Origin: an uncultured bacterium
GTDB taxonomy: Bacteria; Chlamydiota; Chlamydiia; Chlamydiales; SM23-39
Direction of reading: 5' to 3'
Assembly: GCA_964630875.1 (NCBI GenBank)
Contig: CAZVXF010000005.1
Coordinates: 199-64,198, forward strand
Length of the DNA stretch: 64,000 bases
The position numbers and the translations under genes were made by a program. Positions 9,257 to 63,816 of the stretch are shown here, in pieces. The first letter of the stretch is position 1; each line of letters starts with the position of its first letter. Under the pieces are notes generated by a model. It did not search any database, had not been told where the DNA came from, and was given only the letters and a program-made list of their open reading frames with translations.

Positions 9257-9663
9257 ATTAACCCTTTTTCCAACTTCTCCTGAGATTGAACGGTCATCGA
9301 TGCGTAAGGGATCGCTTCAAGCCGACGGATGGGAATTTCATCTCCTGAAATATCGCAAATTCCGTACGTACCCTCTTCGATTTTTTCTAAGGCCCGATCG
9401 ATTTGTCTCAACACATTAAATTCTTTGCTGGTCACCTCAAGACTTACGTTTTTAACAAAATCGTCTGTCCCTTCATCCGCAGAATGCTGTGAATAGCCTT
9501 TCGACTCGTCAGGTGAGGCGACCTCTTTTTTTGCCCCCTCAAGCATCTTTGTCATCTGCGCCTTCATTTCAAGAAGACGGTTTTTAAAATGGGCGATCTC
9601 ACTTTTCTTCAGCGGCATGAATTTCCTCATTTTCTGTTTCGTTGAGAGAGCCAATGGGGGCAA
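9253..9663 (-). CDS. dksA: DksA/TraR-family RNA-polymerase-binding regulator (Cys-depleted zinc-finger variant)
   Basis: Coiled-coil region plus C-terminal GTYGICDISGDEIPIRRLEAIPYASMTVQSQ, which aligns to the DksA CxxC...CxxC finger but keeps only one Cys. The start may be an internal Met, because the 5' end overlaps nrdR. Confidence 0.75.
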   Translation of the reverse strand: MPPLALSTKQKMRKFMPLKKSEIAHFKNRLLEMKAQMTKMLEGAKKEVASPDESKGYSQHSADEGTDDFVKNVSLEVTSKEFNVLRQIDRALEKIEEGTYGICDISGDEIPIRRLEAIPYASMTVQSQEKLEKGLI

Positions 9664-27357: not shown

Positions 27358-28875
27358 TTAATTGACAGCTGTTTGCACAGCGACGTTTTTTTCGCCAATG
27401 AGTGCATCGAACTGCTTGCCGAGTGCTTTCGCTGAGACAATCCAAACAACGATCACACCGAAGAAAATTGCTGCGACAACAGGTGTGCTCCCTGCAATCG
27501 TTGCGAAGAGCAGAAGAAGCCCTTGATGAATGACAGATCCGCCAGATTTTCCAAGGCGTGATCCTACGCCGTCAATCGCTGCCTTCCCTTTCAATTTCGA
27601 TTCATCATTGAGCGGGATGAAAGACATTTCTTTCGTTGCATCAAAAAGGGTATGTTTGCAAGCCCTTGTTACACAATTATGGACAGCTCCTAAAATGACA
27701 CTGAGCACAAGTGGCGTAGCTCCAAAGATGTCTGCTAGCCATGTATATCCCCCTGCATCAAAAAGGACGAAAATAAAGAAAGCCATGCCTGCTACGAAGG
27801 TGACAATGGGAGTGACCAGTGCGCTTGCAGTCCAAGAAAAACGACGAATAAAGCTTCCTGAAACGAAGATCGAAATCAATGTCGCAATCACACCCAACCA
27901 CTTCATCACAGAACCTGTAAAGCCCATATAATCATGGGATTCAGGATACAGTAGTTTTGCCTGATTCTTCCAAACTACCTCTACTAAGTTCATGCAAAGA
28001 TTATAGGCTAATACAATCACTGCAATATATAATAAATAGCGAGACTTGAGGAGATAAGAAAAGCTCGTGCGAAGCGATGTCTTCACTTTTTCAACCGGCG
28101 CTGGACGGTGACTTGGAATCGATGCAAGGTTTTTATTCAAATAGCGGAAAAGAAAAATGGTTACAATTCCACAAGCAATCACGAGCGTGTTGACAAAGAG
28201 AACAGATTGATGCCAAGCTTCAGTCCCATATGGAAGCCAAGAAAAATGCATATTTTGAGATAAACTCTCAGCAATTTGCCCGGCGAAAATTCCGGTCATA
28301 TTCGCTCCAATGCTCCACAGCACATAAAAGCGCTTGGCCTCAGGAACCGTCGTGACCTCATTGGCAAATCCCCAAAATAAAACGGCCAATATAGCAGTTC
28401 CCCAGAGTTCAGACATGACATAGAAAAGTGTGAATGTCCAGTTTCTAAAAACTGCGATAAATCCTTTCAAACCTGTCGGCAATAATTCCTGCAAAGAATC
28501 TGCAAGTCCATGAGGGTGAAGCATTTCTTGAGCGGGAAATAACACAAAGGTAAATAGCGCAAAAAAAGCAAGAAACAGGCCCATCATGAGATAGAAAACT
28601 TTTTCTCGAGAATATCGATTCGACAGTTTCGTAAATAACATTGTTAAAAGAATTGCTGTCGGAAGAATCGCCCAAACTTTGATAAAAGGAATTGCCTCCG
28701 CTCCCGATTGAGAAGCAGTGATGACCATTGTGTCTTTACAACACCGCAGAACGCCATAGCAAAAAGCAATCAGGCAGTACATCAACAGCAAAGGAATAAA
28801 TTTTTTGAATTCGGAGCGATGAACCGGCCAGAAATAGGACCGCCATTTTCCAAATTCTTGGCGCTTACCGTCCAT
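27358..28875 (-). CDS. Nucleotide transport protein (ATP/ADP translocase, NTT/Tlc family), copy A
   Basis: About 12 TM segments with highly conserved Tlc motifs (GAEAIPFIKVWAILP, FWGFANEVT, KGKAAIDGVGSRLGKSGGS). Confidence 0.9.
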   Translation of the reverse strand: MDGKRQEFGKWRSYFWPVHRSEFKKFIPLLLMYCLIAFCYGVLRCCKDTMVITASQSGAEAIPFIKVWAILPTAILLTMLFTKLSNRYSREKVFYLMMGLFLAFFALFTFVLFPAQEMLHPHGLADSLQELLPTGLKGFIAVFRNWTFTLFYVMSELWGTAILAVLFWGFANEVTTVPEAKRFYVLWSIGANMTGIFAGQIAESLSQNMHFSWLPYGTEAWHQSVLFVNTLVIACGIVTIFLFRYLNKNLASIPSHRPAPVEKVKTSLRTSFSYLLKSRYLLYIAVIVLAYNLCMNLVEVVWKNQAKLLYPESHDYMGFTGSVMKWLGVIATLISIFVSGSFIRRFSWTASALVTPIVTFVAGMAFFIFVLFDAGGYTWLADIFGATPLVLSVILGAVHNCVTRACKHTLFDATKEMSFIPLNDESKLKGKAAIDGVGSRLGKSGGSVIHQGLLLLFATIAGSTPVVAAIFFGVIVVWIVSAKALGKQFDALIGEKNVAVQTAVN

Positions 28876-30424
28876 CGACTCCTACAGGGCGAAGTTCTGG
28901 AGTGTCAGGAATATCCAGTTTTGCTGATTCCGCCATCACTTGATCAAACTGTTTTCCAAGAGATATTGTTGCAAATATCCAAACAACTCCAACAATTAAG
29001 AAAATTCCTGCCACATATGGAGTACTTGCTGCTACGGTCGAAAAGAGAATCAATAAGCCTTGATGGACGACAGATCCGCCCGATTTGCCCAGTCGAGAAC
29101 CTACGCCATCAATTGCAGCTTTTCCTTTCAATCGAGACTCCGCACTTAATGGAATAAAGGAAATCTCTTTGGTCGCATCAAAAATTGTATACTTGCAGGA
29201 TCTGGTTGTACAGTTATGAACAGAGCCCAGAAAAACGCTCATTACAAGCGGCGACATGCTCGCCATGAAAGGAACCCAAGCAAGCGCATTTTGATTGAAG
29301 ACCGCAAAAAAGAAGAACCCAACGCCTGCAACTAAAGTGATGACAGGGGTCACAAGTGCGCTTGCTGTCCAAGAAAATTTACGAATCACATTCCCAGTAA
29401 TGAAAACGGAAATCACAGTGGCGATAATGCCCATCCAGGACATGACTTCGCCCATATAAACATTATAATCATTTGGATTTGGATATAATTGCTTAATCTG
29501 ATTTTTCCAAACAACTTCAACCAAATTAATCCCGATATTGTAACAAAGAACGATCAGAGCAATGCAAACTAAATATTTGGATTTTGCAAGATATGCAAAA
29601 TTCTTACGCATTGACATTTTGACTTTTTCTGGCTTAGATCCGTTCGCTATTGGTTCTTCTGAAGGATGGATTACATATTTATTGAGCCACCGGAAAATGC
29701 CCATTGTAATGAGTCCAGAAACAATGATTGAACAACACAAGAAAAGAACCGATTGTTCCCAAGCATCTTTCCCATATGGAAGCCATTTCAAGAAGACGCC
29801 TCCAGAGAAATAAATCGCCATTTGCCCCGCAAAAAATCCAGCAATATTGGCTCCGACACTCCATAAGATATAGAATCTCCGCGCTTCTCCGACTTTTGTC
29901 ACCTCATTGGCAAAGCCCCAGAACAGAACCGCCATGATCGCTGTACTCCAGAGTTCGCTCATCACATAGAAAAGAGTGAACGTCCAATTACGAAACATTG
30001 CGATCAAACCCTTAAATCCTTCAGGAAGAGAGGCTTGCACTTGATCGGCAAAGGCATGCGGGTGTAGAAATTCTTGTGCTGGAAATAAAACAAAAGCAAA
30101 TAAAAAGAAGAATGAGAGGAAAAGTCCCATCATAATATAAAAAACTTTCTCTCGTGAATAGCGATTTGCGAGCCGGGTAAATAAAAAAGTTAACAATAAA
30201 GCCGCAGGGAGAATTGCCCAAACCTTGATGAATGGAATTGCCTCGGCGCCCGAATTGGAAGCAGTGACAACCATTGAATCTTTGTATGCACGAAGAGAAT
30301 TGTAATTAAATGAGATCAAAAAGTAGATGAAGAACATAGGGAGAAATTTTTTCAATTCCCAACTATGAATCGGCCAAAAGAAAGAGCGCCAACCTTTGAA
30401 CTCTGACGTAGACTCTATCTTCAT
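28865..30424 (-). CDS. Nucleotide transport protein (ATP/ADP translocase, NTT/Tlc family), copy B
   Basis: Paralogue of 27358..28875 with the same motif set. Tandem arrangement with an 11-nt overlap. Confidence 0.9.
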   Translation of the reverse strand: MKIESTSEFKGWRSFFWPIHSWELKKFLPMFFIYFLISFNYNSLRAYKDSMVVTASNSGAEAIPFIKVWAILPAALLLTFLFTRLANRYSREKVFYIMMGLFLSFFFLFAFVLFPAQEFLHPHAFADQVQASLPEGFKGLIAMFRNWTFTLFYVMSELWSTAIMAVLFWGFANEVTKVGEARRFYILWSVGANIAGFFAGQMAIYFSGGVFLKWLPYGKDAWEQSVLFLCCSIIVSGLITMGIFRWLNKYVIHPSEEPIANGSKPEKVKMSMRKNFAYLAKSKYLVCIALIVLCYNIGINLVEVVWKNQIKQLYPNPNDYNVYMGEVMSWMGIIATVISVFITGNVIRKFSWTASALVTPVITLVAGVGFFFFAVFNQNALAWVPFMASMSPLVMSVFLGSVHNCTTRSCKYTIFDATKEISFIPLSAESRLKGKAAIDGVGSRLGKSGGSVVHQGLLILFSTVAASTPYVAGIFLIVGVVWIFATISLGKQFDQVMAESAKLDIPDTPELRPVGVDGR

Positions 30425-50172: not shown

Positions 50173-50445
50173 ATGTTTGCAAATGAAATCTATCAACTCA
50201 CTTATCAAGCGCTGATCCTGATTTTGATCTTATCGGGTCCGCCGATCATTGTGAGTATGATTCTGGGTTTACTCGTTGCTATTTTCCAGGCAGCCACCCA
50301 AATTCAAGAACAAACCCTTTCCTTTACTGTAAAACTTTTCGCTGTTGTTTTTACAATCATTGCCCTGAGTGGCTGGCTTGGTGGACAAGTGATTCAATAT
50401 ACCAACACGATCTTCACAGCGATTCAGAAATATAGCGCAGCATGA
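50173..50445 (+). CDS. sctS: Type III secretion export-gate protein SctS (YscS/CdsS, FliQ-like)
   Basis: 90 aa, two TM segments, conserved FQAATQIQEQTLSF motif. Confidence 0.9.
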   Translation: MFANEIYQLTYQALILILILSGPPIIVSMILGLLVAIFQAATQIQEQTLSFTVKLFAVVFTIIALSGWLGGQVIQYTNTIFTAIQKYSAA

Positions 50446-51290
50446 ATACGCTACATGCAACGGAAAGCTACCTTTCTCTTCTCCTAAGCCTTCCAAATCT
50501 TGATCCATATACGGTTTTATCGGTTTTTTTCTTAACGCTAGCAAGACTACTCCCCGTTCTTGCTCTGGCTCCCTTTTTGGGGTCCCAAAACGTTCCGATG
50601 ACGATTAGAGTCATGTTTGGCGTTGCTCTCACCGCTATTTTTCTGCCGCAAAATTTATTGACTGTTCATCACAGTATTCCCTTTGGAATGGGTTTTGTTT
50701 TTTTGTGCATCAAGGAACTTGTATTTGGTGCGGTTCTAGGGTTTTTAAGTTCTGTTCCCTTTTATATCGCGCAAATGTCTGGAAGCTTAATCGATTTTCA
50801 ACGAGGCGCCTCTTCTCTTCAAGTCACAGATCCAACAACAAAATCTCAAACAGGTTCTATTGGTATTCTGTATAACCTCGTTTTGATCGCAGTTTTTTAT
50901 TCTCTGGGGGGGCCTTTTTTTTTCTTTGATGGAGTGGCTACTTCTTATCAAATGATCCCCGTCGATTCATTTACCAACCCAGATTTCTTTCACGCATCGA
51001 ATCCATTCTGGAAAATGACCTTTCAAATTGCGCAAACGATGTTTACTCTTTGCGTTCAATTAGCTGCCCCTTCTCTCATCGGCATTCTCCTCATGGACAT
51101 GTTCCTTGGAATTGCCAATCGCCTCGCTCCACAAGTACAAATCGTTTTCCTTGGCATCCCTCTCAAATCTTGGGTTGGACTTGCTCTGCTGACTGCTGCC
51201 TGGGCCTTAATTATTCAAGTGATGGGCAAACAAACACTTGACTGGTTTAAGTCGATTAATAAACTAATCCAAACCGTAAAATTTATTTGA
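50442..51290 (+). CDS. sctT: Type III secretion export-gate protein SctT (YscT/CdsT, FliR-like)
   Basis: Polytopic FliR-like protein directly following sctS with a 4-nt overlap. Confidence 0.85.
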   Translation: MNTLHATESYLSLLLSLPNLDPYTVLSVFFLTLARLLPVLALAPFLGSQNVPMTIRVMFGVALTAIFLPQNLLTVHHSIPFGMGFVFLCIKELVFGAVLGFLSSVPFYIAQMSGSLIDFQRGASSLQVTDPTTKSQTGSIGILYNLVLIAVFYSLGGPFFFFDGVATSYQMIPVDSFTNPDFFHASNPFWKMTFQIAQTMFTLCVQLAAPSLIGILLMDMFLGIANRLAPQVQIVFLGIPLKSWVGLALLTAAWALIIQVMGKQTLDWFKSINKLIQTVKFI

Positions 51291-52632: not shown

Positions 52633-53616
52633 ATGCGAGCGATGGTCTTAGAAGCTCTTCATAGCCCTCTAATTTTAAGAGAAGTTCCTCGCCCCACTCC
52701 AAATCCAAACGAAGCGCTGATACAAGTAAAAACATGCGGTGTTTGCAGAACTGATCTTCACATCGTTGATGGTGAACTTCCCACACCCACACTTCCTCTC
52801 ATATTAGGTCATCAAGTAGTAGGGATCATCAAAGAATTGGGTAAAAATGTCTCTAAATACAAAGTTGGTGATCGAGTAGGTGTCCCATGGCTTGGAGGCA
52901 CTTGCCACACTTGCGAATTTTGTCTATCCAACAGAGAAAACCTGTGCGATCAAGCAATCTACACTGGATACACACGAAACGGTGGATATGCCGACTTTTG
53001 TACAGCGCATGAAGATTATATGATCCCTCTCTATCACGACCATGACGATCTACATACTGCACCCCTACTCTGCGCAGGTCTGATTGGCTATCGGGCTTTT
53101 CGATTAGCAAGTCCTTCTAAAACAATTGGCTTTTATGGTTTTGGATCCTCCGCTCATATATTGATTCAAGTGGCGATTGCTTTGGGCTCGGAAGTCTATG
53201 TATTCACTCGAAAAGGCGATCTAGAAACGCAAAACTTTGCCTACTCATTAGGGGCAAAATGGGCCGGAGGATCGGACGAACTTTCCCCCATTCCCCTAGA
53301 CGCTGCAATTATTTTTGCACCCGTCGGCGCGCTTTATCCACAAGCCTTAAAAACAATTAAAAAAGGCGGGAAAGTGATCAGCGCTGGCATTCATATGAGC
53401 GATATTCCCTCATTTCCGTATCGTCTATTGTGGGAAGAGCGATCCATCTCCTCCGTTGCCAACCTCACGCGTCAAGATGGACTTGATTTTATGCAGCTCA
53501 TTCAACAAATTCCCATTCAGGTTAAAGCAACCCCCTATTCATTAACAGACGTCAATCAAGCTCTTTCAGCGATCCGTAACGGATCCCTCGACGGTTCTGC
53601 AGTCATTACCATCTAG
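52633..53616 (+). CDS. Zinc-dependent alcohol dehydrogenase (MDR family)
   Basis: Catalytic Zn motif GVCRTDLH, structural Zn cluster CHTCEFCLSNRENLC and the Rossmann motif GFGSSAH. Confidence 0.85.
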   Translation: MRAMVLEALHSPLILREVPRPTPNPNEALIQVKTCGVCRTDLHIVDGELPTPTLPLILGHQVVGIIKELGKNVSKYKVGDRVGVPWLGGTCHTCEFCLSNRENLCDQAIYTGYTRNGGYADFCTAHEDYMIPLYHDHDDLHTAPLLCAGLIGYRAFRLASPSKTIGFYGFGSSAHILIQVAIALGSEVYVFTRKGDLETQNFAYSLGAKWAGGSDELSPIPLDAAIIFAPVGALYPQALKTIKKGGKVISAGIHMSDIPSFPYRLLWEERSISSVANLTRQDGLDFMQLIQQIPIQVKATPYSLTDVNQALSAIRNGSLDGSAVITI

Positions 53617-54167
53617 GGAATTGCAAAACAAGCATCCGATTTTTGAGTTTGTTTGGGTATAATATGCTTACAAATCTTCGTAGCCTTTTCAAAAGGCTCT
53701 TCAAGAATTGTTCGTCCTATAACGGTTGAATCACTTACTTTGTATTTAATATTACCTTTATCAACGGATACAATAATCAAATCACTTACATCGTTTCCCA
53801 TATTGTCCTGAAAGAAAATAACCATTTCGATATTGTCAGGAGTGAAAGGATACTTTGCTAAATAAGGCCTAATTTTTTCATTTTCATTAATTGCAGTAAC
53901 AAGAATATTGACGCAATCGATAATCATAGGTCTCGTTTCATCTATTGTAAGAGGCCTTCTGCATTCAAAAGCTAAATATAACATTTTGATTTCATCCATC
54001 ATTTGTCCTCCATTACCAAAAGGACTTAATCCATATTTCTTTGTGATGGCTTTAGCAGTATTTACAAGGACTGAATTCGCTAGTTTTTCTTTTTCGCTGA
54101 CTGGGTATGATGTTTGGGTGCTACAGCTACAAAATAAAAATAAAAAAATTAAGCACACCTTAATCAT
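53613..54167 (-). CDS. Hypothetical lipoprotein (candidate immunity partner of the upstream hydrolase)
   Basis: Lipobox LFLFCSCS. There is an 8-nt overlap with the upstream gene. The C-terminal roughly 10 codons run into the repeat junction. Confidence 0.5.
   Translation of the reverse strand: MIKVCLIFLFLFCSCSTQTSYPVSEKEKLANSVLVNTAKAITKKYGLSPFGNGGQMMDEIKMLYLAFECRRPLTIDETRPMIIDCVNILVTAINENEKIRPYLAKYPFTPDNIEMVIFFQDNMGNDVSDLIIVSVDKGNIKYKVSDSTVIGRTILEEPFEKATKICKHIIPKQTQKSDACFAIP
53615..53662. repeat. Composite repeat junction: GGAATTGCAAAAC motif fused to the right half of the TATACCCAAACAA palindrome
   Basis: agggaattgcaaaac (identical to the MITE terminal repeat at 15271..15285) is followed by ccgatttttgagtttgtttgggtataat (identical to 46983..47010). 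This marks the core/island boundary. Confidence 0.65.
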
Positions 54168-55401
54168 TGTAAATCCCTTTTCTTAATAAATAATCATCAA
54201 TATGCTGAAATAACACTTTAAAATATGTGCGACTTCGATAATTATGATCCATTCCTTCTGCTTCAGGATGAGGTTCCAAAATAATTAATTCTCCACGATT
54301 GGCTATCGCTTTTTGCAGTCGCTCATCTAAGAGTCTGCCTTTGTATCCTGTTAAAGAATTTACTATGGCTGTTTCTGCTGAGCATAAATATATTTCAGCA
54401 TTAGGAACAATATCGGCCTTACTCGCGTAATTATAAGATTTATAACACAGATTAGTTGGGATAAGAGTTGCCGGCGCTATAGCTATTACTATAATCCTTT
54501 CACGAACCTCTTTTGGGAGTCCTTCCAATGCATTTTTCACATGAATAGTACCTTGACTATGACAATTCTGCAAATATTTTGCATGAGGGTTATTTTTATT
54601 TTCTTCATGAAATACAAGCCAGTTCTCTCTCAGCAATTTCTCAGTGATCGGAGAATATCCAGACATATTCACTAAACCTGCTTCAATTCCATCTAAAATC
54701 GGATTATTCGAACAATTATATACCCACTCTACTGCTAATTCCTTCGTAAACTTTTTTAAGTACTCTGAGTTTAAAACCGCATCACAAAGAGAATTCCCTA
54801 TCCCGTTTATACCACCGATTCTCATTGTAGGCTGCTGATTACCCGTAGTTCTAAATGTCATAGAAGTATTGTATTGCGGTTTTAGAGGTAAAACTTCAGG
54901 ATCCGCAATGTAATCCATGTATTGTGATTCAAATAGCCAATGACCCCAATTTTGTTGCAAGGGCATCATTTCCGATGAAAAAACAGGTAAATTCCTATCT
55001 AACTTAGGGATTTCGGTGTATGTGTTGCTTGGAACGCTTGAAACTTGAGAATCACTATTCAGACCTTCCGCAAGAGCAGCAACACCCGAACAAAGAGCTG
55101 AATCTGCTACTAGAGCGGCCACGCCGGCAGTCAGAATAATCGCTGCCGTCACAGCAGCACCATCGAGAATTACTCCTCCCGTAATCAAGATAATTTTTTT
55201 ATGTTTTTGCCAAAAAGATTTTTTCTCCTTCGTCGACTTATGAGAAAAAAGCTGTGTGTTTTGTGCAACTTTCGCAATCTTTTCAACGCCAGACTGATCA
55301 CTCCATACGAACTTTTTATGAAATTTTTCTCCATCTAAATATGTGCTATTTTCAGAAAAGAGAACGGAATTGAATTCACAAGAATCAATAGTAGCCATCA
55401 C
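54160..55401 (-). CDS. Membrane-anchored alpha/beta-hydrolase-like protein (lipase-type nucleophile elbow)
   Basis: Bilobed Gly/Ala-rich hydrophobic region (IILITGGVILDGAAVTAAIILTAGVAALVADSALCSGVAALA), an oxyanion-like IGGINGIGNS, a nucleophile elbow CHSQG, and later Asp/His candidates (ASKADIV and GMDHNY). Confidence 0.55.
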   Translation of the reverse strand: MMATIDSCEFNSVLFSENSTYLDGEKFHKKFVWSDQSGVEKIAKVAQNTQLFSHKSTKEKKSFWQKHKKIILITGGVILDGAAVTAAIILTAGVAALVADSALCSGVAALAEGLNSDSQVSSVPSNTYTEIPKLDRNLPVFSSEMMPLQQNWGHWLFESQYMDYIADPEVLPLKPQYNTSMTFRTTGNQQPTMRIGGINGIGNSLCDAVLNSEYLKKFTKELAVEWVYNCSNNPILDGIEAGLVNMSGYSPITEKLLRENWLVFHEENKNNPHAKYLQNCHSQGTIHVKNALEGLPKEVRERIIVIAIAPATLIPTNLCYKSYNYASKADIVPNAEIYLCSAETAIVNSLTGYKGRLLDERLQKAIANRGELIILEPHPEAEGMDHNYRSRTYFKVLFQHIDDYLLRKGIYND

Positions 55402-55654
55402 AATCTCCAGAGAAAATTTTAATGGCGAATTCTAAAAAAATATGTTGATATTTTCAACAACACTTTTGACGAGAGGGCTCTCAACAAAGAGCTCCTAATT
55501 TTAAAAATTGTACTAATAAAATACTCTGTACTACAGCGTTTCATTAATTTTGACAATTGTTGGGTAAAGCTTTTTTAGTTTGATTCTTGCATCCTCAACA
55601 GTGAATCGCCAATCAACAACATGTGCATCTTTGTTTCTGTTCTCCCCGACGTAG

Positions 55655-55910
55655 CATAGTATAGCCAGAAAGCATTGGTCGATAGAGAACGGGCTACATC
55701 GATCTTTAGATATGGTGTTTAAGGAAGATTCAGCACAGGAACATGATCGAAATGCAGCCGCTAATTTATCTGTGTTACGCAAAATTGCTCTCTCGCTTCT
55801 GAAAGCAATAGATCCTCATAAGAAGTTAAAAATTAAAATGAAAGAATGTGCTTACTCACCAGTTTTTCGCAGTCGTTCTTTATTGGGAGAATTTTAATGC
55901 GTCAGTTCTG
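55655..55910 (+). mobile_element. 3' remnant of an ISAs1-family IS (transposase C-terminal 81 codons plus the IS end)
   Basis: The in-frame translation HSIARKHWSIENGLHRSLDMVFKEDSAQEHDRNAAANLSVLRKIALSLLKAID... matches the conserved HW.IEN.LHW.LDV.F.ED..R.R..NA..NLA.LR..ALNLL C-terminus of ISAs1 (H-repeat) transposases (recall). It has no N-terminal roughly 290 aa. Its last roughly 110 nt are repeated in inverse orientation at 60166..60275. Confidence 0.75.
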
Positions 55911-56027
55911 GCTGACATCAAGGATACGCTTCAAAGTATTGAGAAAAGCAATGACAAAAAAAGAGATGATTTTTCTTGCTTGTAAAATGTATTTTCCTCA
56001 AAGTGCGTTTCCATTTGAAGGTGAAAC

Positions 56028-57875
56028 GTGCGATATTTTCTGTTCCTATTATGCATAAGTTTTTCTCTTTTTCCTAATGATGATTGGGAAGATAAAGAAA
56101 CTTTCCAGTATGGATCTTTTGTAACATATGCTGGTTTGGAGTTGCGATGCGACAGAGGTTGTGGGGATCCTGAATACGATCGAAATGCAGATAAAATAAA
56201 TTACCTATGTTGTGAATGGTTGCGGAAGCCAATTAATCCTGACTTCTATTCTCGGTTGCGGTGGAGGCATGCGGAAAATGTAAATCTACAACCTTGGGAA
56301 TCTTCTACACTGAGTCGTTCCGACTGGGAAGGCAGTTTTGAAAGATTTGAGGAATATGAAGATGAAGGCATGTCTCATGGAGAATTTCTAAAAACTTCTT
56401 CTGAATTTTTAGAAGAGATAAGCAATCTTGCTTTCGTTTCACAAGAAGATCTCCAGCATCATAAAAAAAATATTCAAAAAATCCAGGAATTACAAACCCT
56501 TGGAGCTCGTTTCATTGAGTGGAATGACGAAGACGAAGTAGAGGGATATGAACGAGGATCGTTCAATTCTTCTACTATTCGAAATGCAATGGATTCAGAA
56601 ACAAGAGCCGTTTCTCGGTGTGAAAGAGAACTGGAATGTTATGAGCAATATCGGGATTATGCAGAAGATACTTTTCGACTTGTAGATGCAACATTCAAAA
56701 AAATATTCATCAATTGTCTGGAGAAACACCAGTCTGAGGGGATTACTTTTCGCGCCGCTCTAAATGATCTAATGCAGAATAACTTAGACGATGCTCTTGA
56801 ACGACTTGAGTTTTTAGTAAAGCTCGCAGAAACAAAAAATTGGGACGGAAAATTGATTGCTAAACTGCAATTACTCCAAGGAGAAGTGGAGAATGAGCTT
56901 TGCCTTTACGCTGATGCGATTGTAACTCTAACTTCTTCCATACAGCGCGATCCTAGTTGTAAAGAAACTTATCTCGAACGAGCGAGAGCTTACTTTGAAA
57001 CTGGCGAATTTGAATCGGCTTTTCAAGATTTCTTATCTTCAGGCATCAAAAGTACTCCAATTGATCCCCAAAATAAATCCCTTATCGCTTTTGCTTCTGG
57101 CATTATGTCTGGAACTCTGCGCGGAGGTCAAGAGGGGCTAACAGAGTTCATTCCTTCATTGATTACTTCTTTAAAAATGCTTGGATCAGGGGTTTGGGCT
57201 TTTGTTCAAAATCCAGTAGAAATTTCTTCCGAATTTGCTAACGCGGTATACGATATAGTTGAATCTGTGCAATCGTTTGAGGATTTCTCTTCTATCTTAA
57301 TCCCGGAATTAAAGGATCTAGTTTCCAATTGGGAAGAAATGTCCTCTTTTCAAAAGGGAGGGTCTTGTGGTCACATTATAGGAAAATATGGGATCGATAT
57401 TCTTTTACCTTTGGGTGTTGCAAAAGGAGGAAAAGCATTTGTTAAATTGAGACAAGCTTCTGCAGTTCATGTATTTGAATCATATGTAAAAACGGAAACA
57501 AACGCATTGCAACTTCAGAAAAAAGCTCAATTAGCGCTAGCGCGCAGAACTGGTCAATTAAAAAATGCTGCCTACGCAGAAATTGAGGATAGAAAAATTA
57601 CTAAATATGCATTGGAAAAAAGTGGCAAATCTAATGGTTTCAGAGAGATTTTAGGTTATAATGAATCAAACTGGGAAGAACTGCAAGATAGCATTAAAAA
57701 AGGTATTTTGAAAAATAAGGCTAAGTTCCATAAGATTGATCAGTATGGCGTTAAATTTTCAGTAGATATGTTAATTGAAGGGCCTAAGGGTAAAGCTAAC
57801 GTTAGAACAGGATGGATATACGATCTGGGAAGCGATAAGCCACGCCTTACTACACTGTTTGTATGCACGAAGTAG
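56028..57875 (+). CDS. Polymorphic-toxin-like secreted protein A1 (conserved N-terminal and TPR regions, Gly-rich hydrophobic module, DUF6883-like C-terminal tip)
   Basis: GTG start with a hydrophobic N-terminus MRYFLFLLCISFSLF. It shares CD.GCGDP.YD and EGYER motifs and a TPR-like segment with the 61304 paralogue. The C-terminal segment KITKYALEKSGKSNGFREILGY...W..L...DQYGVKFSVDMLIEGPKGKANVRTGWIY...PRLTTLFV fits my recollection of the DUF6883 pattern. Confidence 0.7.
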   Translation: MRYFLFLLCISFSLFPNDDWEDKETFQYGSFVTYAGLELRCDRGCGDPEYDRNADKINYLCCEWLRKPINPDFYSRLRWRHAENVNLQPWESSTLSRSDWEGSFERFEEYEDEGMSHGEFLKTSSEFLEEISNLAFVSQEDLQHHKKNIQKIQELQTLGARFIEWNDEDEVEGYERGSFNSSTIRNAMDSETRAVSRCERELECYEQYRDYAEDTFRLVDATFKKIFINCLEKHQSEGITFRAALNDLMQNNLDDALERLEFLVKLAETKNWDGKLIAKLQLLQGEVENELCLYADAIVTLTSSIQRDPSCKETYLERARAYFETGEFESAFQDFLSSGIKSTPIDPQNKSLIAFASGIMSGTLRGGQEGLTEFIPSLITSLKMLGSGVWAFVQNPVEISSEFANAVYDIVESVQSFEDFSSILIPELKDLVSNWEEMSSFQKGGSCGHIIGKYGIDILLPLGVAKGGKAFVKLRQASAVHVFESYVKTETNALQLQKKAQLALARRTGQLKNAAYAEIEDRKITKYALEKSGKSNGFREILGYNESNWEELQDSIKKGILKNKAKFHKIDQYGVKFSVDMLIEGPKGKANVRTGWIYDLGSDKPRLTTLFVCTK

Positions 57876-57882
57876 AAAATCT

Positions 57883-58446
57883 ATGAACGTCGGCGATAAA
57901 ATTTTAATTACTTATAATATTTCTCTAAGAAATTTAAAAGGCTTTATCGTGTCTTCTCTTCCCCCAGTCAATTCAAAAACGTACTTGGTTAAAATTTCTT
58001 TTAAAAAGCCGCTTTTTGTCACAGTAAAAGAATCTGAATTTATTCGAGTGGGTAAGAAAGAAGTACGTTTATCTGCTCCTTCTTTTTTCCATGAAACAGG
58101 ATGTGATGGAACGATCGTCGGCGTGCTACCTCGCAGCCACTATCTTTGCGAATTTGATGAGCCTTTCTGTAATATTATCCTTAAAGAAAAGGAAATTATG
58201 AAATGGGAGCCAGAGAAAGGGGTTTTTGCTCTTTTAGATGTTGTCCGGCTCACAGAAGATTTTCCTGAATATAACTTAAAAAAGGGCGCTGAAGGAACTA
58301 TTGTCCTTGTATTCTTTAAGCCATCCCTTGCGTATGATGTTGAATTTCATTTTGGAGAAGATGCAGATCCACCATGGGATAACTTCACATTTTCGCCACA
58401 TCATCTCGAATTTGTTCGGAGTCTTTCAAGCTCACTTCAGAATTGA
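57883..58446 (+). CDS. Immunity-like protein I1 (three tandem small beta-rich modules, the last DUF4926-like)
   Basis: The ATG lies 7 nt after the A1 stop, at the same relative position as in the I2 copy. The C-terminal segment LDVVRLTEDFPEYNLKKGAEGTIVLVF...AYDVEF fits the DUF4926 pattern (recall). The ORF-track start at 57775 would overlap A1 by 100 nt and is not conserved between the two copies. Confidence 0.65.
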   Translation: MNVGDKILITYNISLRNLKGFIVSSLPPVNSKTYLVKISFKKPLFVTVKESEFIRVGKKEVRLSAPSFFHETGCDGTIVGVLPRSHYLCEFDEPFCNIILKEKEIMKWEPEKGVFALLDVVRLTEDFPEYNLKKGAEGTIVLVFFKPSLAYDVEFHFGEDADPPWDNFTFSPHHLEFVRSLSSSLQN

Positions 58447-58753
58447 TACAGGGTGTCGTAGAACAAACCACGACAAAAAACTTTTTTTATAGTAGAATTA
58501 CTTTTAGAGTTTATCCGAAAATAAGTCCGAGGAAATAGCTGCAAAATCTCGGACGCAAAAATTATTTAAGAAAGCCTTATAAATGAGCAATTATCGAAGC
58601 CATCAAGACTTAGTCACAAAATATGAAGAATGTGAAAAAAAGTTACGCTCTTTGAAATGTATGGATTTTCAGCACAACTCATTGTTACTATTTTGTTATT
58701 CTGTTTAAATAACCTACATATAAATCATTTCTATTCATGCTTTGCACTTCTTG

Positions 58754-59578
58754 ATTGATCCCCAAAATAAATCCCTTATCGCTTTTGCTTCTGGCATTAT
58801 GTCTGGAACTCTGCGCGGAGGTCAAGAGGGGCTAACAGAGTTCATTCCTTCATTGATTACTTCTTTAAAAATGCTTGGATCAGGGGTTTGGGCTTTTGTT
58901 CAAAATCCAGTAGAAATTTCTTCCGAATTTGCTAACGCGGTATACGATATAGTTGAATCTGTGCAATCGTTTGAGGATTTCTCTTCTATCTTAATCCCGG
59001 AATTAAAGGATCTAGTTTCCAATTGGGAAGAAATGTCCTCTTTTCAAAAGGGAGGGTCTTGTGGTCACATTATAGGAAAATATGGGATCGATATTCTTTT
59101 ACCTTTGGGTGTTGCAAAAGGAGGAAAAGCATTTGTTAAATTGAGACAAGCTTCTGCAGTTCATGTATTTGAAGCTTACGTTAAATCAGAAACAAACGCT
59201 TTGCAACTTCAGAAAAATGCTCAATTAGCACTTGTCGACAAAGTGAAGAAAACAGGTCAATTGAAAAATGCCAAGTCGGCTATTCTTTATGATGACAAAT
59301 TCACAAAATATGCATTGAAAAACGACGGAAAAGTTAAAGGATTTAGAGAAATATTAGGCTTTAATGAAACAAATTGGACAGAGCTGCAAGATAAAATTAA
59401 AAAAGGAATTTTGGAAAATATGGCAAAATTCCATAAGATAGACAAGCATGGAGCTAAATTTACAATTGACATGATAATTGAAGGCCCAAAAGGCAAGTCA
59501 AATGTTAGAACTGGATGGATATACAAACCTGGAAAAGAGCAGCCCGAGCTTACGACTTTATTCGTTTGCACAGAGTAA
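58754..59578 (+). pseudogene. Orphan C-terminal cassette A2' (start-less duplicate of A1 residues from about 345 onward, with a diverged DUF6883-like tip)
   Basis: 58754..59173 showed no mismatch to 57060..57479 in a manual comparison, and the sequence then diverges. There is no N-terminal domain and no ATG at the homology boundary, only a TTG at 58742. The frame is open to 59578. Confidence 0.7.
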
Positions 59579-59585
59579 AAAATTA

Positions 59586-60149
59586 ATGAAAAATGGCGAT
59601 AAAATCCTTATCAAGGATAGCTTTGTATTGAATGAAGCAAAGGGAACAATTTTGGCTTCGTTACCACCAGTTAATTCTAAGAAACTTCTTGTAGAAGTTT
59701 CTTATAAAAAACCATTGATCCTTGAGCTTGATGAATCAGAAGTAACAAGATCTGATAAGAATAAACATGTTCGAATTTCCAAATACTACTGTCAAGAAGA
59801 AGGAAGTGCTGGAACAATTGTGCAAGTTTTGCGCCGTGGTAAGTATCTTTGCGAGTTTGATGGCCCTTTTTGTAATATGATTTTAAAGGAAAAAGAAATT
59901 ATGAAATGGGAGCCAGAGAAAGGGGTTTTTGCTCTTTTAGATGTTGTCCGGCTCACAGAAGATTTTCCTGAATATAACTTAAAAAAGGGCGCTGAAGGAA
60001 CTATTGTCCTTGTATTCTTTAAGCCATCCCTTGCGTATGATGTTGAATTTCATTTTGGAGAAGATGCAGATCCGCCATGGGATAGCTTCACATTTTCTCC
60101 ACATCATCTCGAATTTGTTCGGAGTCTTTCAAGCACACTTCAGAATTGA
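59586..60149 (+). CDS. Immunity-like protein I2 (paralogue of I1, diverged N-terminal two modules, near-identical C-terminal module)
   Basis: Same length (187 aa) and spacing as I1. The final roughly 85 codons are nearly identical to I1, and the first roughly 100 are clearly diverged. Confidence 0.65.
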   Translation: MKNGDKILIKDSFVLNEAKGTILASLPPVNSKKLLVEVSYKKPLILELDESEVTRSDKNKHVRISKYYCQEEGSAGTIVQVLRRGKYLCEFDGPFCNMILKEKEIMKWEPEKGVFALLDVVRLTEDFPEYNLKKGAEGTIVLVFFKPSLAYDVEFHFGEDADPPWDSFTFSPHHLEFVRSLSSTLQN

Positions 60150-60165
60150 TATAAGGGTGTCGTAG

Positions 60166-60275
60166 CAGAACTGACGCATTATAATTCTCCCAATAAAGAC
60201 AGGCTACGAAAAACAGGCGAGTAAGCACACTCTTTCATTTTGATTTTTAACTTCTTATGAAAATCTATTGCTTTC
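60166..60275 (-). mobile_element. Short 3' remnant of the same ISAs1-family IS, in inverted orientation
   Basis: The reverse complement aligns to 55801..55910 with scattered mismatches and encodes LKAIDFHKKLKIKMKECAYSPVFRSLSLLGEL*. Homology stops at the same terminal sequence ...taatgcgtcagttctg. Confidence 0.75.
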
Positions 60276-60634
60276 AAATCACCCACCTTGAAGTGGACCC
60301 CAAAACTGGACAGGTCAATACGGCTGTAGAAATTCTAAACGATTCACGAGGGCCCTCTTAGGATACCCAAACAATTTACCCCTCCATAAAGAACCAAGTC
60401 AATAGGTTTTGCTGAGGTGTTGTCAATTCACTGCCCTCCCCTTCTCATTGAAAGGTAAAAAATGACCATCCCAATTTCTCTTAATTATTGTGCAAGTGGG
60501 GAGAAAAATCGTATCACGTAAAAAAATAAATCATTCCCATGAGTGGATACTTGGTGCAGAAAAATTCGCCGGTACGCTAAGTGTAGGTTTAAAAAGTGCT
60601 TTTTGAAAACAATATGGAGATCCTCCCCTGACAT

Positions 60635-61021
60635 ATGACCACTAAAAAGAAAGAATCCATTCTAAAGGAAGCGTTTTCCCTCAAAAGTCTAAAAAGGGAT
60701 TGGGAAAGAGCAATGATGACAAAAAGAGAAGAACCTTTCCTTTTCTGGTCATTTGGATCTTTAGGTGTTGCTCTTTTACTACTAGGAGGCCTGAGCTTGG
60801 CAGCAAACATTCTGTTTGTATATCGGAATGCGGCCAGCACAAAGATTCAGGTTGTTATTAGTGTTTTTACATTCTTAACCGGATTGCTTGGAATTTATCT
60901 TGTATCAAAGGGAATGATTTTATTTAGATCTCCAATGAATGATCGATTCAATCGTAGCCAGGGACTTGGTTTTGTTTTAATGATTTTCACTATTGTTTTA
61001 TGGATTTTAGCCAACATTTGA
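60635..61021 (+). CDS. Hypothetical membrane protein (128 aa, three TM segments)
   Basis: Charged N-terminus followed by three hydrophobic segments. No recognised motif. Confidence 0.4.
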   Translation: MTTKKKESILKEAFSLKSLKRDWERAMMTKREEPFLFWSFGSLGVALLLLGGLSLAANILFVYRNAASTKIQVVISVFTFLTGLLGIYLVSKGMILFRSPMNDRFNRSQGLGFVLMIFTIVLWILANI

Positions 61022-61303: not shown

Positions 61304-63169
61304 ATGTTGCATTTTCTTCTTTTTTTCTTATTTGGTGCTTTAAGCTCATTATTTTCATCTTCCGATTGGGATGAGGATAATAACTATTCCAGGTCTCTTG
61401 TCTCCTATGGAGGGATAAGTTTTTATTGTGATAATGGATGCGGAGATCCTAAATATGATTCTGAAGAAGCAGCTATCGAGTGGCTGTATACATGTTGGTT
61501 AGATAAACCATTGTATGCTTCACAACCCTTCTCGAGAAAAGACAATCATTTTATAGAGAAATTTGGGCTTTGCTCATGGACTGGCAATCAATTTTTTGAT
61601 ACGAGCATGCGCAGTTTCTTTTGGGAGGATGAGTTAAATGAAACTCATACTGGATTTCTTAAAATTTCTTCTGATTTTTTAGCAGGACTCCTTGAGATCA
61701 GGAATGAATGCGAAAAAAACATTGAAGAGTCTAAACAAAACATAAAGACTATCGAAGATCTTCAGTCTCAGGGGGCTCGCTTCATCGAAATCAACGGGGA
61801 TGAAATTGAGGGCTATGAACGCTGCTCGTGGAAAAGCACACCAATCGCGGAGGCTATTCAAGACGAAATTCGGGCGATTGCTTTTCAGCAATCCGATCTA
61901 GAAGAATGTGATCAATATCAAAAATATGCCGAAAATACTTTTGATCTGATCGATTCTCTCTACAGAAATATTTTTGTGTGGTGTTTAGAACACCACCAAC
62001 CTGAAGGGATTATTTTTAAAGAAGCGGTGGAAAATTTTATCGCTGCGGATTATGACAAAGCAATCGAGCAGATCAGGTTTTTGATCTCTCTTTCAGAAAA
62101 ACGTGCCTTTAATCCTGAATTAATCTCAAAACTCTACCTTCTTAAAGGGCAGTTCCAATCAGAGTTTTGTCAATATTCAGATGCTATTATCGCATTGACA
62201 ATAGCAATTGAGAAGGATCCAACGCAAAAAGAGACTTATTTCGAAAGAGCTGTCGCATATTTCGAGCTGGGACAATTTGAAAAATCTCTAGAGGATTATC
62301 TCTTATCAGACTTTGAAAATATTTCACCTAAAAACAAATTACAACGAGGTTTTTTTTCTTCCATCAGCTCCGGCGTTGTAATGGGGATCCTGGAAGGGGC
62401 CGCCAATTCTGCTACCGAATTTGTCCCCGAGACTTTGAGTTCTCTACGAGGAATAGGAAATGGACTATGGGCTTTTTCCAAAGATCCAATAGGAGCTTCA
62501 GTCGCTTTTGTGGAAGCCGCGACTCAATGCATAGAATACCTTGTAGAAAACTCGTCTGTCCAGATTGCCCAAGATTTGGTACCGGAACTCAAAAAATTAA
62601 TTCAGAACTATGACGATCTCGCTGACTTCGAGAAGGGCAAACTTATCGGTTATATTATTGGGAAATATGGAGCAGATATTTTGATGTGTCAATACTCTGT
62701 CAAAGCAGTAAAGGCTTATCGAAATCTCAAAAAAGCTAATCAACTTATGACCCTGGAAGCTTTAGCTTCACCCAAAAATGTTGAAAAAACATTGCAGGAA
62801 GCAAGTCAAAAATTTTGGGCTCAGAGAACTGCTATTTTGAAACAGAATAATCTCAAGATTCACCAAGGAAGACAAGGGAAGCATCTAGAGGATCATATAA
62901 ATTACCAAGAGCTTAAAAAGAGAAAGAAAAACCCCAGTATTTTCCAACATCCAGATCCACAACGATTACTTCAGACGTACGCTGGAACAGGAAGAAAAGT
63001 TTCAAGAGAACTACCTGGAACCACAGGGTATAGAGAAATTGTAGATTTTGAAGAATTTATAGGATATGCTGTTAACGAAATAACAGGAGAAAAAACGGCT
63101 ACCACCTTTGGGAAAATTCATTATGCCAAAGATGGAGTTCATATTGTCCCCTGTATCGGAAAAAACTAA
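61304..63169 (+). CDS. Polymorphic-toxin-like secreted protein A3 (same N-terminal architecture as A1, Ntox50-like C-terminal tip)
   Basis: Collinear with A1 through the N-terminal Cys motif (CDNGCGDPKYD), EGYER, the TPR-like block and the Gly-rich module (FSSISSGVVMGILEGAANSATEFVPETLSSLRGIGNGLWAF). The C-terminal segment HQGRQGKHLEDHINY...REIVDFEEFIGYAV...TGEKTATTFGKIHYAKDGVHIVPC matches my recollection of the polymorphic toxin type 50 domain (GKQ.KH...V.F...IG......T..G.IHYSK.G.HIVP). Confidence 0.7.
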   Translation: MLHFLLFFLFGALSSLFSSSDWDEDNNYSRSLVSYGGISFYCDNGCGDPKYDSEEAAIEWLYTCWLDKPLYASQPFSRKDNHFIEKFGLCSWTGNQFFDTSMRSFFWEDELNETHTGFLKISSDFLAGLLEIRNECEKNIEESKQNIKTIEDLQSQGARFIEINGDEIEGYERCSWKSTPIAEAIQDEIRAIAFQQSDLEECDQYQKYAENTFDLIDSLYRNIFVWCLEHHQPEGIIFKEAVENFIAADYDKAIEQIRFLISLSEKRAFNPELISKLYLLKGQFQSEFCQYSDAIIALTIAIEKDPTQKETYFERAVAYFELGQFEKSLEDYLLSDFENISPKNKLQRGFFSSISSGVVMGILEGAANSATEFVPETLSSLRGIGNGLWAFSKDPIGASVAFVEAATQCIEYLVENSSVQIAQDLVPELKKLIQNYDDLADFEKGKLIGYIIGKYGADILMCQYSVKAVKAYRNLKKANQLMTLEALASPKNVEKTLQEASQKFWAQRTAILKQNNLKIHQGRQGKHLEDHINYQELKKRKKNPSIFQHPDPQRLLQTYAGTGRKVSRELPGTTGYREIVDFEEFIGYAVNEITGEKTATTFGKIHYAKDGVHIVPCIGKN

Positions 63170-63816
63170 TGCAATTCCCCATATATTATGTTCTCTTAAG
63201 TGTACAGACTGCTCTAGAGAATGCCATCACTCCTCAATTACGTGCTGTAACGGTTGATCTTGATGAAAAAAAACGTGAGCTGCTTGTGTGTTTTTTCTAT
63301 CACGGAGAGATTACGGAGGAATTACGCACTTTGTCAAGCGTTGTCATGGCAGAAGTAGATGTAAATGCAAAAGAACATTACTCAATGTATGAAAACTCTG
63401 TTCAGGTGGATTTTCCAAAGAAAATTCCAATTCAGGGACGATTGGTTTTTTTGCGAAATGAACCAAATCTTCCTCAAATAGAAAAAGAAAATAGAAACTT
63501 TCTTCTTAAAGAATGGCCTCCTATAGCTGTTTTTCGGCTGAATATGCAGGAAGCTCTCTTGGGAAGAATATCTCCGTCTTTACGGCTTGTTAGCGTAGGA
63601 ATAAATGAAGATCAGAAACAACTCATATCGCATTTCATCTACGATGGAGAAATCTCAGAAGAGGACATGAACATGGCTTCTTCTGCAATTAATGAAGCTA
63701 GTTCCTTTTTCCCTCAATATAAAATCAATTCCTCCATTGAGAGAATTGATTTCCCAAATCAGATGCTTCCTCGTGGAACATGGGCTGTTTACTTAAGGCA
63801 AGAATGGAAATACTAA
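63169..63816 (+). CDS. Immunity candidate I3 (two tandem repeats of about 100 aa)
   Basis: The ATG overlaps the A3 stop (TAATG), which suggests translational coupling. The two halves are internally repeated (L.NAITPQLRAVTVDLDEKKRELLVCFFYHGEITEE versus LLGRISPSLRLVSVGINEDQKQLISHFIYDGEISEE). Confidence 0.6.
   Translation: MQFPIYYVLLSVQTALENAITPQLRAVTVDLDEKKRELLVCFFYHGEITEELRTLSSVVMAEVDVNAKEHYSMYENSVQVDFPKKIPIQGRLVFLRNEPNLPQIEKENRNFLLKEWPPIAVFRLNMQEALLGRISPSLRLVSVGINEDQKQLISHFIYDGEISEEDMNMASSAINEASSFFPQYKINSSIERIDFPNQMLPRGTWAVYLRQEWKY

Follow-up and report, generated by a model that had tools for sequence, protein, structure and literature searches.

The MafB/MafI polymorphic toxins combine a Sec leader and a lineage-specific N-terminal domain with exchangeable C-terminal tips, including Ntox50, and have orphan cassettes downstream. 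In Neisseria these orphans are reportedly MafB-CT/MafI cassettes. Contact-dependent inhibition (CDI) and Rhs systems (CdiA-CT/CdiI and Rhs-CT/RhsI) likewise place a variable tip and its cognate immunity protein after a conserved region, and their orphan pairs retain part of the conserved coding region that precedes the tip, which serves as a recombination arm. Here we analyse a locus that shares these traits, located in a 64,000-nucleotide stretch of DNA from an uncultured chlamydia-like bacterium (the window; contig CAZVXF010000005.1, positions 199 to 64,198). It comprises a gene for a full-length putative toxin (A1), a putative immunity gene (I1), a spacer, an orphan C-terminal toxin cassette (A2') with its own putative immunity gene (I2) and, further downstream, a paralogous pair (A3 and I3). 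We estimate a probability of roughly 0.78 that the locus is a polymorphic toxin-immunity system built on a Sec-type scaffold restricted to the Chlamydiota and fitted with exchangeable tips, the toxin and immunity roles being putative. Three features of polymorphic toxins in the sense of Zhang et al (2012; PMC3482391), namely one scaffold with unrelated tips, a covarying downstream gene and stand-alone tip cassettes, are found in this family.

Judged by analogy, MafB/MafI is the closest functional parallel. Like MafB, A1 carries a Sec signal peptide, a conserved lineage-specific N-terminal domain and an exchangeable C-terminal putative toxin, with a putative immunity gene directly downstream and start-less alternative tip/immunity cassettes beyond; in addition, the tip of A3 is homologous to MafB2-CT (Ntox50). 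However, the N-terminal domains are unrelated (no DUF1020/MafB Pfam match in A1 at E≤1, nor in 31 family members at E≤0.01), and therefore the locus is not a Maf member. The chlamydial scaffold also differs from MafB in having a cysteine motif, a tetratricopeptide repeat (TPR) block and a helical pre-toxin module of ~155 residues; moreover, no MafA-like gene was seen, and the chlamydial host bacterium is obligately intracellular.

The relation to CDI and Rhs systems is one of layout and of tip: DUF6883, the tip family of A1, is itself present on Rhs and CdiA-like proteins. In contrast to their carriers, A1 is only 615 residues long and lacks haemagglutinin repeats, DUF637, VENN, YD/RHS repeats, PAAR and HINT, neither CdiB nor type VI genes are present in its vicinity, the delivery machinery is entirely different, and the cassettes of the window carry a further homology arm within the putative immunity gene. 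An earlier reading of the window made from its letters alone (the original prediction) had recognised none of the usual trafficking modules in A1, and Pfam bears this out: only TPR and tip families are matched in A1 and in 31 family members, with no Rhs, haemagglutinin, LXG, HINT, PAAR, VENN or PT-TG domain.

Further parallels are more distant. Nuclease colicins are soluble secreted proteins with N-terminal and central uptake domains, a C-terminal nuclease and a tightly linked immunity gene, roles that the corresponding parts of A1 would share, and the tip of one family member (L025) is of the colicin/pyocin DNase type; however, the uptake domains are unrelated in sequence, a Sec leader takes the place of lysis-protein release, and the chlamydial loci are chromosomal and accompanied by orphan cassettes. 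Unlike the MuF-fused phage polymorphic toxins (PMC5576092), A1 has a Sec/TPR scaffold as its carrier. The BECR-Tox3/DUF4926 pairs of a recent preprint (bioRxiv 10.64898/2026.08.28.747851) have the same tip and partner families, with the tip likewise encoded first and the partner after it on one strand. Because we found no description in the literature of the scaffold, its tip/immunity repertoire or orphan cassettes in the Chlamydiota, we rate the system as ordinary in its logic and new in its delivery scaffold and ecological setting.

The A1 reading frame opens with a GTG codon preceded by GAAGGTGA. A Sec-type leader (residues 1-15) is followed by a C-x2-GCGDP motif (residues 42-51), a helical region and a TPR block (residues ~280-340, with Pfam TPR matches at 294-337); the C-terminal part consists of a helical pre-toxin module (residues 345 to ~500, nucleotides 57060-57527) and the DUF6883 tip (residues 511-613). 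The sequences of A1, A3 and most homologues visibly begin with leaders of this type (MRYFLFLLCISFSLF/PNDDW, MLHFLLFFLFGALSSLFS/SSDW). The original prediction had described the leader, the cysteine motif, the TPR block and a Gly/Ala/Ser-rich helical module; all are visible and conserved among homologues. Because their Kyte-Doolittle maximum is 1.3, below the transmembrane threshold, the pre-toxin helices were rejected as classical membrane-spanning helices; they would instead be amphipathic. I1 combines a variable N-terminal portion of ~110 residues with a conserved C-terminal DUF4926 domain, and only 5 proteins of this type were found among the 5.8 billion searched.

Table 1. Features of the toxin loci and their surroundings in the window (strand + is the strand read).
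Feature	Position	Strand	Remark
A1, putative full-length toxin, 615 aa	56028-57875	+	open reading frame, GTG start
I1, putative cognate immunity protein, 187 aa	57883-58446	+	ATG 7 nt past A1 stop
Unique spacer, 307 nt	58447-58753		no long open reading frame
A2', orphan cassette: pre-toxin module and second DUF6883 tip	58754-59578	+	homology to A1
I2, putative immunity protein for A2' tip, 187 aa	59586-60149	+	start 7 nt past A2' stop
Tip loop/His site (A1 residues 530-534 and 568)	~57615-57732	+	shared by A2', P0002, P0003
A3, putative paralogous full-length toxin, 621 aa	61304-63169	+	same scaffold, 35-38% identical to A1
I3, putative immunity protein for Ntox50 tip, 215 aa	63169-63816	+	start overlaps A3 stop
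Left arm of 111-nt inverted repeat	55800-55910	+	3' end of decayed ISAs1-family transposase gene
Right arm of 111-nt inverted repeat	60166-60276	-	same insertion sequence end, facing inward
Two tandem TLC ATP/ADP translocase genes	27358-30424	-	hallmark of obligate intracellular chlamydia-like genome
Bac_export_1, type III secretion export-apparatus gene	50442-51290	+	likewise a hallmark of such a genome
413-aa protein gene	54160-55401	-	long hydrophobic segment at residues ~70-110, 'HSQG' motif
184-aa protein gene	53613-54167	-	lipoprotein-like leader; overlaps 413-aa protein gene by 8 nt
128-aa predicted membrane protein, no family named	60635-61021	+	between the two toxin loci

Homology between A2' and A1 begins exactly at nucleotide 58754, which corresponds to A1 nucleotide 57060 (codon 345, 'IDPQNK'), so that leader, N-terminal domain and TPR block are all missing from A2'. 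The original prediction had called this cassette start-less, and accurately so: there is no ATG or GTG, the sole in-frame start is a TTG at 58742 that has no Shine-Dalgarno-like sequence, and the spacer upstream holds stop codons in the A2' frame at 58706-58708 and 58721-58723. The spacer and the sequence that follows I2 share no similarity. All elements of the predicted gene order are present, with the coordinates slightly corrected and the spacer measuring 307 nucleotides rather than 292; the A3/I3 pair (61304-63816) and the inverted repeats of insertion sequence (IS) remnants that flank the locus had been overlooked.

One line of evidence is the distribution of the scaffold and of what is attached to it. 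The N-terminal 500 residues of A1 matched only 30 proteins among the same 5.8 billion, and all those that carry a name derive from Chlamydiales-type metagenome-assembled genomes (MAGs). A scan of one genome per species gave 79 scaffold loci that are 26-40% identical to A1. The source MAGs mostly carry a Chlamydiota label (Rhabdochlamydia, Simkaniaceae, Parachlamydiaceae and others), several loci carry a Verrucomicrobia label or are unclassified, and one lies on a 2.2-kb contig labelled archaeon; as far as seen, the scaffold family appears to be restricted to the Chlamydiota. All members share a TPR block and a helical pre-toxin module, with the motifs 'EFxPS...GLWAF' and 'IIGKYG'.

At least seven unrelated tip classes follow the pre-toxin module. 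The most populous is Ntox50 (45 members), followed by two classes that belong to no Pfam family, one characterised by 'HVMQxKHAW...DAWVxTK' (13 members) and one of 130-190 residues by 'VRVMPGxPxSP' (12 members). DUF6883 is carried by A1, A2', P0002, P0003 and L081, and an LHH/colicin-pyocin DNase tip, above the Pfam cut-offs, by L025; a class with 'RFDFxRPxPHExPHxH' (L003, P0005 and P0011) and a singleton (L007) are again without a Pfam family. At least four Pfam-less classes (among L026, L030, L003, L007, P0005, P0011 and P0012-P0030) each have their own unnamed downstream gene family. Tip classes and downstream gene classes were clustered independently (E≤1e-5), and the class of the downstream gene matched that of the tip in 41/45, 13/13 and 11/12 loci of the three populous classes. 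Such covariation of tip class and partner class is the defining trait of polymorphic toxin systems. The original prediction had named an invariant pairing of the N-terminal domain with one C-terminus across genomes as an outcome that would speak against polymorphism; the same scaffold in fact carries Ntox50, DUF6883, LHH/colicin-DNase and at least four unnamed classes, which clearly favours polymorphism.

Orphan cassettes are likewise a recurrent trait. Searching with the tips alone (tblastn) detected orphan tip/partner cassettes downstream of the first partner gene in ~11 of the 79 loci (L010, L011, L013, L014, L026, L035, L042, L058, L071, L072 and L074), where the tips are start-less or truncated and each is followed by a partner gene. 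In the arrays of L010, L013, L014, L035, L042, L058, L072 and L074, the orphan tips often consist of the C-terminal half of Ntox50 only, each again followed by an intact partner gene. The arrangement in L014 reads A(737 aa)-I-half-tip-I-tip-I-half-tip-I, with the three orphan cassettes at 7200-9600, and a complete Simkaniaceae genome (L072, CP073762; 7250-8270) has A(735 aa)-I(124)-orphan tip(90 aa)-I(124). The organisation claimed at the outset, with orphan tips that have their own putative immunity genes, holds in the window, where A2'-I2 lies between arms of 420 and 257 nucleotides, and recurs in these loci. Among the orphans observed, only that of the window keeps the whole pre-toxin module, at 100% identity.

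A different target for the same proteins has to be considered at this point. The RNase tips could be host-directed effectors that enter the cytosol of an amoeba or animal cell, with the partners protecting the producer only before export and the downstream cassette arising as a by-product of duplication. The organism does look obligately intracellular (the window encodes two TLC translocases and a type III export protein), effectors aimed at eukaryotes frequently contain TPR blocks, and an RNase whose targets are universal would demand self-protection whatever cell it is meant for. Zhang et al (2012; PMC3482391), who report several toxin domains in Chlamydiae and immunity-linked URI toxins in Simkania, found that intracellular bacteria and pathogens mostly lack immunity genes and argued that the toxin domains of intracellular bacteria are for the most part directed at the host. 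However, that argument is based on absent immunity genes, whereas here a separate partner class accompanies each populous tip class. Orphan partner genes are kept in arrays, as expected if immunity to the toxins of rivals is selected, the leader is Sec-type and not a type III signal, and old balanced alleles between conserved arms, described below, are the pattern of an interbacterial arms race. We therefore regard a host-directed role as unlikely and favour the polymorphic toxin-immunity system.

To relate the tips and partners to known families, profile searches were performed. The A1 tip matches DUF6883 (Pfam PF21814) with E 2.7e-18 and 66.7 bits and the A2' tip with E 1.5e-17 and 64.3 bits, against a cut-off of 27; I1 matches DUF4926 (Pfam PF16277) at residues ~116-154 (E 4.7e-15, 55.2 bits) and I2 in its C-terminal third (E 2.3e-17, 62.6 bits), against a cut-off of 29.1. 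The pairing named in the original prediction is thereby borne out, with both tips and both partners above the Pfam gathering scores. Its description of the pair as uncharacterised no longer wholly applies: a preprint of August 2026 (bioRxiv 10.64898/2026.08.28.747851) places DUF6883, under the name 'BECR-Tox3', in a colicin-like branch of the BECR RNases, reports its association with DUF4926 and considers the latter a likely immunity protein.

The wider distribution of DUF6883 was surveyed with HMMER, run exhaustively on 1.84 billion representatives (E≤1e-3), since a word-index search with the 120-residue tip missed even the window's own protein. Among the 991 representative clusters obtained, the domain lies at or very near the C-terminus in the best 150, in proteins of 85-1378 residues. 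Upstream of it, 40 sampled longer proteins carry RHS repeats, DUF637/haemagglutinin repeats (CdiA-like), LXG and eCIS core domains, as well as Phage_Mu_F, phage portal, PT-TG and DUF6861. By its placement, DUF6883 thus appears to behave as a polymorphic-toxin tip. In ten unrelated metagenomic loci, the gene directly 3' of DUF6883 encodes DUF4926 in five (four above the Pfam cut-off), and in three more a 60-residue protein of similar look lies downstream; all five known DUF6883 tips on the chlamydial scaffold (A1, A2' and three others) are each followed by a DUF4926 protein. A tblastn search of 50,697 phage records with the tip gave no match, PADLOC defence models gave none either, and NCBIfam holds no family for A1, I1 or I3.

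The partners are unusual in size. DUF4926 partners elsewhere are typically single domains of 60-80 residues, whereas I1 and I2 have 187 residues, ~110 of them extra at the N-terminus. The motif 'G.(D/E)GTIV.V...Y..EF' is repeated in the middle and C-terminal parts of I1 and I2, and the middle part (module 2) of I2 gives a sub-threshold DUF4926 match (E 0.004). Because hhalign comparisons among the three putative modules of I1 returned probabilities of 14% or less, a tandem of three DUF4926-like beta-rich modules is but a weak possibility.

Comparison of the two cassettes revealed a mosaic. The 5' arm in the pre-toxin module (57060-57479 versus 58754-59173) is identical at 420/420 nucleotides. 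The 3' arm, at the DUF4926-encoding end of the partner gene (58192-58448 versus 59895-60151), is identical at 253/257 with a perfect run of 179, and the homology stops 2 nucleotides past the partner stop codon. Between them lie cores of ~712 and 721 nucleotides that comprise the tip and the N-terminal ~100 residues of the partner and are about 50-75% identical. These cassettes are far beyond chance repeats. Codon-based estimates of synonymous divergence (dS) follow the same boundaries: dS is 0 over 136 pre-toxin codons, 1.6 over the 105 codons of the tip (ratio of nonsynonymous to synonymous divergence, dN/dS, 0.13), saturated over the first 100 partner codons and 0.08 over the last 87 (codons 101-187; dN/dS 0.13). 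At the protein level the tips are 69-70% identical, and I1 and I2 are 57-61% identical over their N-terminal 100-110 residues and 97-99% over the remaining C-terminal part. A simple tandem duplication would diverge evenly; the uneven dS indicates what appear to be two old, selectively maintained tip/partner alleles between arms kept identical by recent shared ancestry or gene conversion.

A related contig (L080) helps to place the two alleles. It encodes P0002, which is 63% identical to A1 over the N-terminal 344 residues (scaffold dS 1.33) and is followed by its partner, a DUF4926 protein of 182 residues (P0034), with no orphan cassette in the contig. The tip and the partner N-terminal part of P0002 resemble A2'/I2 (76% and 70% amino acid identity, dS 0.96 and 0.64) more closely than A1/I1 (70% and 54%, dS 2.25 and 1.69), so that an allele of the A2' type sits as the tip of a full-length gene in a relative. 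On the simplest reading, A2'-I2 would be the ancestral allele of the lineage, displaced by an incoming A1-tip/I1 cassette, as has been proposed for Rhs and CDI orphans.

These data bear on whether A2'-I2 is instead a decaying remnant of a partial tandem duplication, without function, not exchanged with A1 and with a silent I2. The missing ATG or GTG start and Shine-Dalgarno sequence, the lack of any promoter-like signal above chance, the flanking IS remnants and low G+C content that suggest a rearranged island, and the in-frame stops in the tips of related loci L035, L070 and L074 would all fit such a remnant. However, dS values of 0 and 0.08 in the arms against 1.6 or saturation in the core are not the even divergence it would produce. 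Moreover, A2' remains an intact frame of 278 codons in DNA of 63% A+T with a dN/dS of 0.13, I2 is intact and spaced by the same 7 nucleotides as I1, and the same allele serves as the tip of an active gene in P0002. Simple decay is thus distinctly unlikely, and highly improbable is an assembly artefact in which two strain alleles with identical flanks were joined in series. The source is apparently an assembled contig of ~69 kb, and a 420-nucleotide perfect repeat together with a 179-nucleotide perfect run can confuse short-read assemblers, but the copies are joined by 307 nucleotides that are unique within the window and that mis-traversal of an assembly graph would not create. I1 and I2 also differ at four positions in the 3' arm, and analogous orphan arrays occur in other assemblies, including the complete genome CP073762.

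Averaged over the five known tip/partner pairs, identity is 55% in the N-terminal 100 residues of the partner, 70% in the tip and 81% in the DUF4926 domain, and because of this ranking we infer that allele specificity lies in the partner's N-terminal part.

Further support for a shared scaffold with exchangeable tips comes from the paralogous pair. A3 shares with A1 the leader, the motif (here 'CDNGCGDPKYD'), the TPR block and the pre-toxin module, and its tip is Ntox50 (Pfam PF15542; E 4.9e-24, 85.3 bits against a cut-off of 22.2), showing 'GKH...IHY...HIVP', that is, the HxVP motif with the conserved histidines kept. A profile of chlamydial Ntox50 tips matches the C-terminal domain of B. subtilis YxiD (PDB 9v8i_B, E 7.5e-19) and the Neisseria MafB2 toxin (PDB 8hhj_B, E 3.3e-14). 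YxiD-CTD has been shown experimentally to be a metal-dependent tRNase of BECR fold that is sterically blocked by its cognate immunity protein (PMC12700104). I3 consists of two repeats of an 'ALLxxVxPxLRAVxV...FxYDGEIxEE' module, has no relative in Pfam, NCBIfam or the PDB (the last by single-sequence search), and belongs to a family, with the module single or in tandem, that lies directly downstream of 41 of the 45 Ntox50-tipped chlamydial homologues. Zhang et al (2012; PMC3482391) listed Ntox50 in chlamydiae and gave no immunity family for it; the I3 family is a candidate new immunity family for Ntox50.

Several results weigh against this account of the locus, and they concern the fold and chemistry of the DUF6883 tip, the exchange of cassettes and the expression of the orphan. 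The BECR fold of the tip is taken from the preprint (bioRxiv 10.64898/2026.08.28.747851) and would apply here by family membership. In an AlphaFold2 model of A2' built from 30 sequences (predicted local distance difference test, pLDDT, 62.8), the all-helical pre-toxin module is moderately confident, and the tip shows three helices followed by four strands at pLDDT 34-64, which leaves the BECR fold unsupported by the model. A Foldseek comparison of the model with PDB structures yielded no match below E 0.3, the DUF6883 profile found nothing among PDB sequences, and hhalign of DUF6883 against Ntox50 returned a probability of 0.5%, that is, no relation. An AlphaFold2 model of I1 from 5 sequences (mean pLDDT 52.5) was too poor for use. 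Of the conserved polar residues of the family, the A1 tip keeps K523, Y527, K534, N548, D571, D580, R593, T594, W596 and T609. However, the chlamydial DUF6883 tips lack the five-residue 'HPvGG' loop, whose histidine is conserved in ~85% of 149 representatives; these tips may therefore use a different catalytic set or may have lost activity. These tips have a histidine (His568) where 125 of the 149 representatives have glycine, and 6 of 7 sequences with a histidine at that position are without the loop histidine, which suggests a functional sub-type with a relocated catalytic histidine and not decay.

With regard to exchange, none of the other loci among the 79 has an extra copy of the pre-toxin module. 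A metagenome scan for close relatives of the pre-toxin and DUF6883 cassette returned only distant non-chlamydial DUF6883 tips, with no evidence of tip switching, and it revealed no recombinant with the A2' tip on this exact scaffold. Distances between tips and between partners correlate weakly across the five pairs (r 0.42, n 10), too weakly to prove co-evolution. The DUF4926 domains of I1 and I2 are 97-99% identical while the tips are only 70% identical, so that DUF4926 alone cannot explain allele specificity. Finally, with regard to expression of I2, a promoter and terminator scan gave no signal above the shuffled expectation.

According to the model that we propose, A1 would reach the periplasm by Sec export and leave the cell through a type II pathway or in vesicles, and the TPR/helical pre-toxin scaffold would bring it into neighbouring bacteria within the same host cell or inclusion. 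There the tip, as a BECR-fold RNase, would halt translation. In the producer, I1 would bind and neutralise the tip, its variable N-terminal ~100 residues setting allele specificity and its DUF4926 domain giving a constant contact. A2'-I2, as a displaced ancestral allele, could recombine back onto the full-length gene through its arms, with the tip and the partner N-terminal part being swapped by a double crossover in the 420- and 257-nucleotide arms; in the meantime, I2 may give immunity against competitors armed with an A2'-type tip. A bolder version, which we hold only tentatively and consider doubtful, is that the scaffold is a self-contained, Chlamydiota-specific device that carries nuclease tips between chlamydial cells within a shared host cell or inclusion, and that the two-armed cassettes allow strains to switch toxin/immunity type through homologous recombination during co-infection, leading to kin discrimination or superinfection exclusion and perhaps helping symbionts to protect amoebae from other intracellular bacteria.

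Interbacterial weapons are generally regarded as being of little use to obligate intracellular bacteria. A toxin family spread through the phylum with matched immunity genes and spare cassettes therefore argues for real competition within host cells, among chlamydiae or with other endosymbionts. The system opens what would be a new delivery scaffold to direct testing and gives a first testable context for the DUF6883/DUF4926 pair, and its proteins are possible molecular players in the symbiont-mediated defence of amoebae (PMC6520448).

The surroundings of the locus were also analysed. The window is chromosomal and chlamydia-like, encoding PolA, Rho, SufB, an autotransporter, two TLC ATP/ADP translocases and a type III export gene. 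Its G+C content falls from about 0.41 to 0.35-0.39 at ~54 kb and stays in that range to 64 kb, compared with ~0.40-0.44 over the preceding 50 kb. A repeat search of the window showed that the A1-I2 block is bracketed exactly by two inverted-repeat arms, complementary at 100/111 positions, the interval between them being 55911-60165. An open reading frame at 55712-55897 matches positions 286-314 of the 314 in the transposase family NF033564 (transpos_ISAs1) with E 2.4e-4, which is below the family cut-off, the frame being a fragment. The IS-remnant region also extends over 55531-55897, and the paired inward-facing IS ends resemble the remnant of a composite transposon. The IS-end repeat was searched for in related toxin loci and not found there; the P0002 locus (L080) is likewise flanked by DDE transposase genes. 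Given these flanking genes, the IS remnants and the low G+C content, both toxin loci probably sit in a rearranged, horizontally acquired island.

At the edge of the low-G+C region lie the genes for the 413- and 184-residue proteins, the latter with the leader MIKVCLIFLFLFCSC. Neither has a match in Pfam, NCBIfam, PADLOC or the PDB. From its 'HSQG' motif the 413-residue protein reads as alpha/beta-hydrolase-like, and the two genes could constitute another effector/partner pair.

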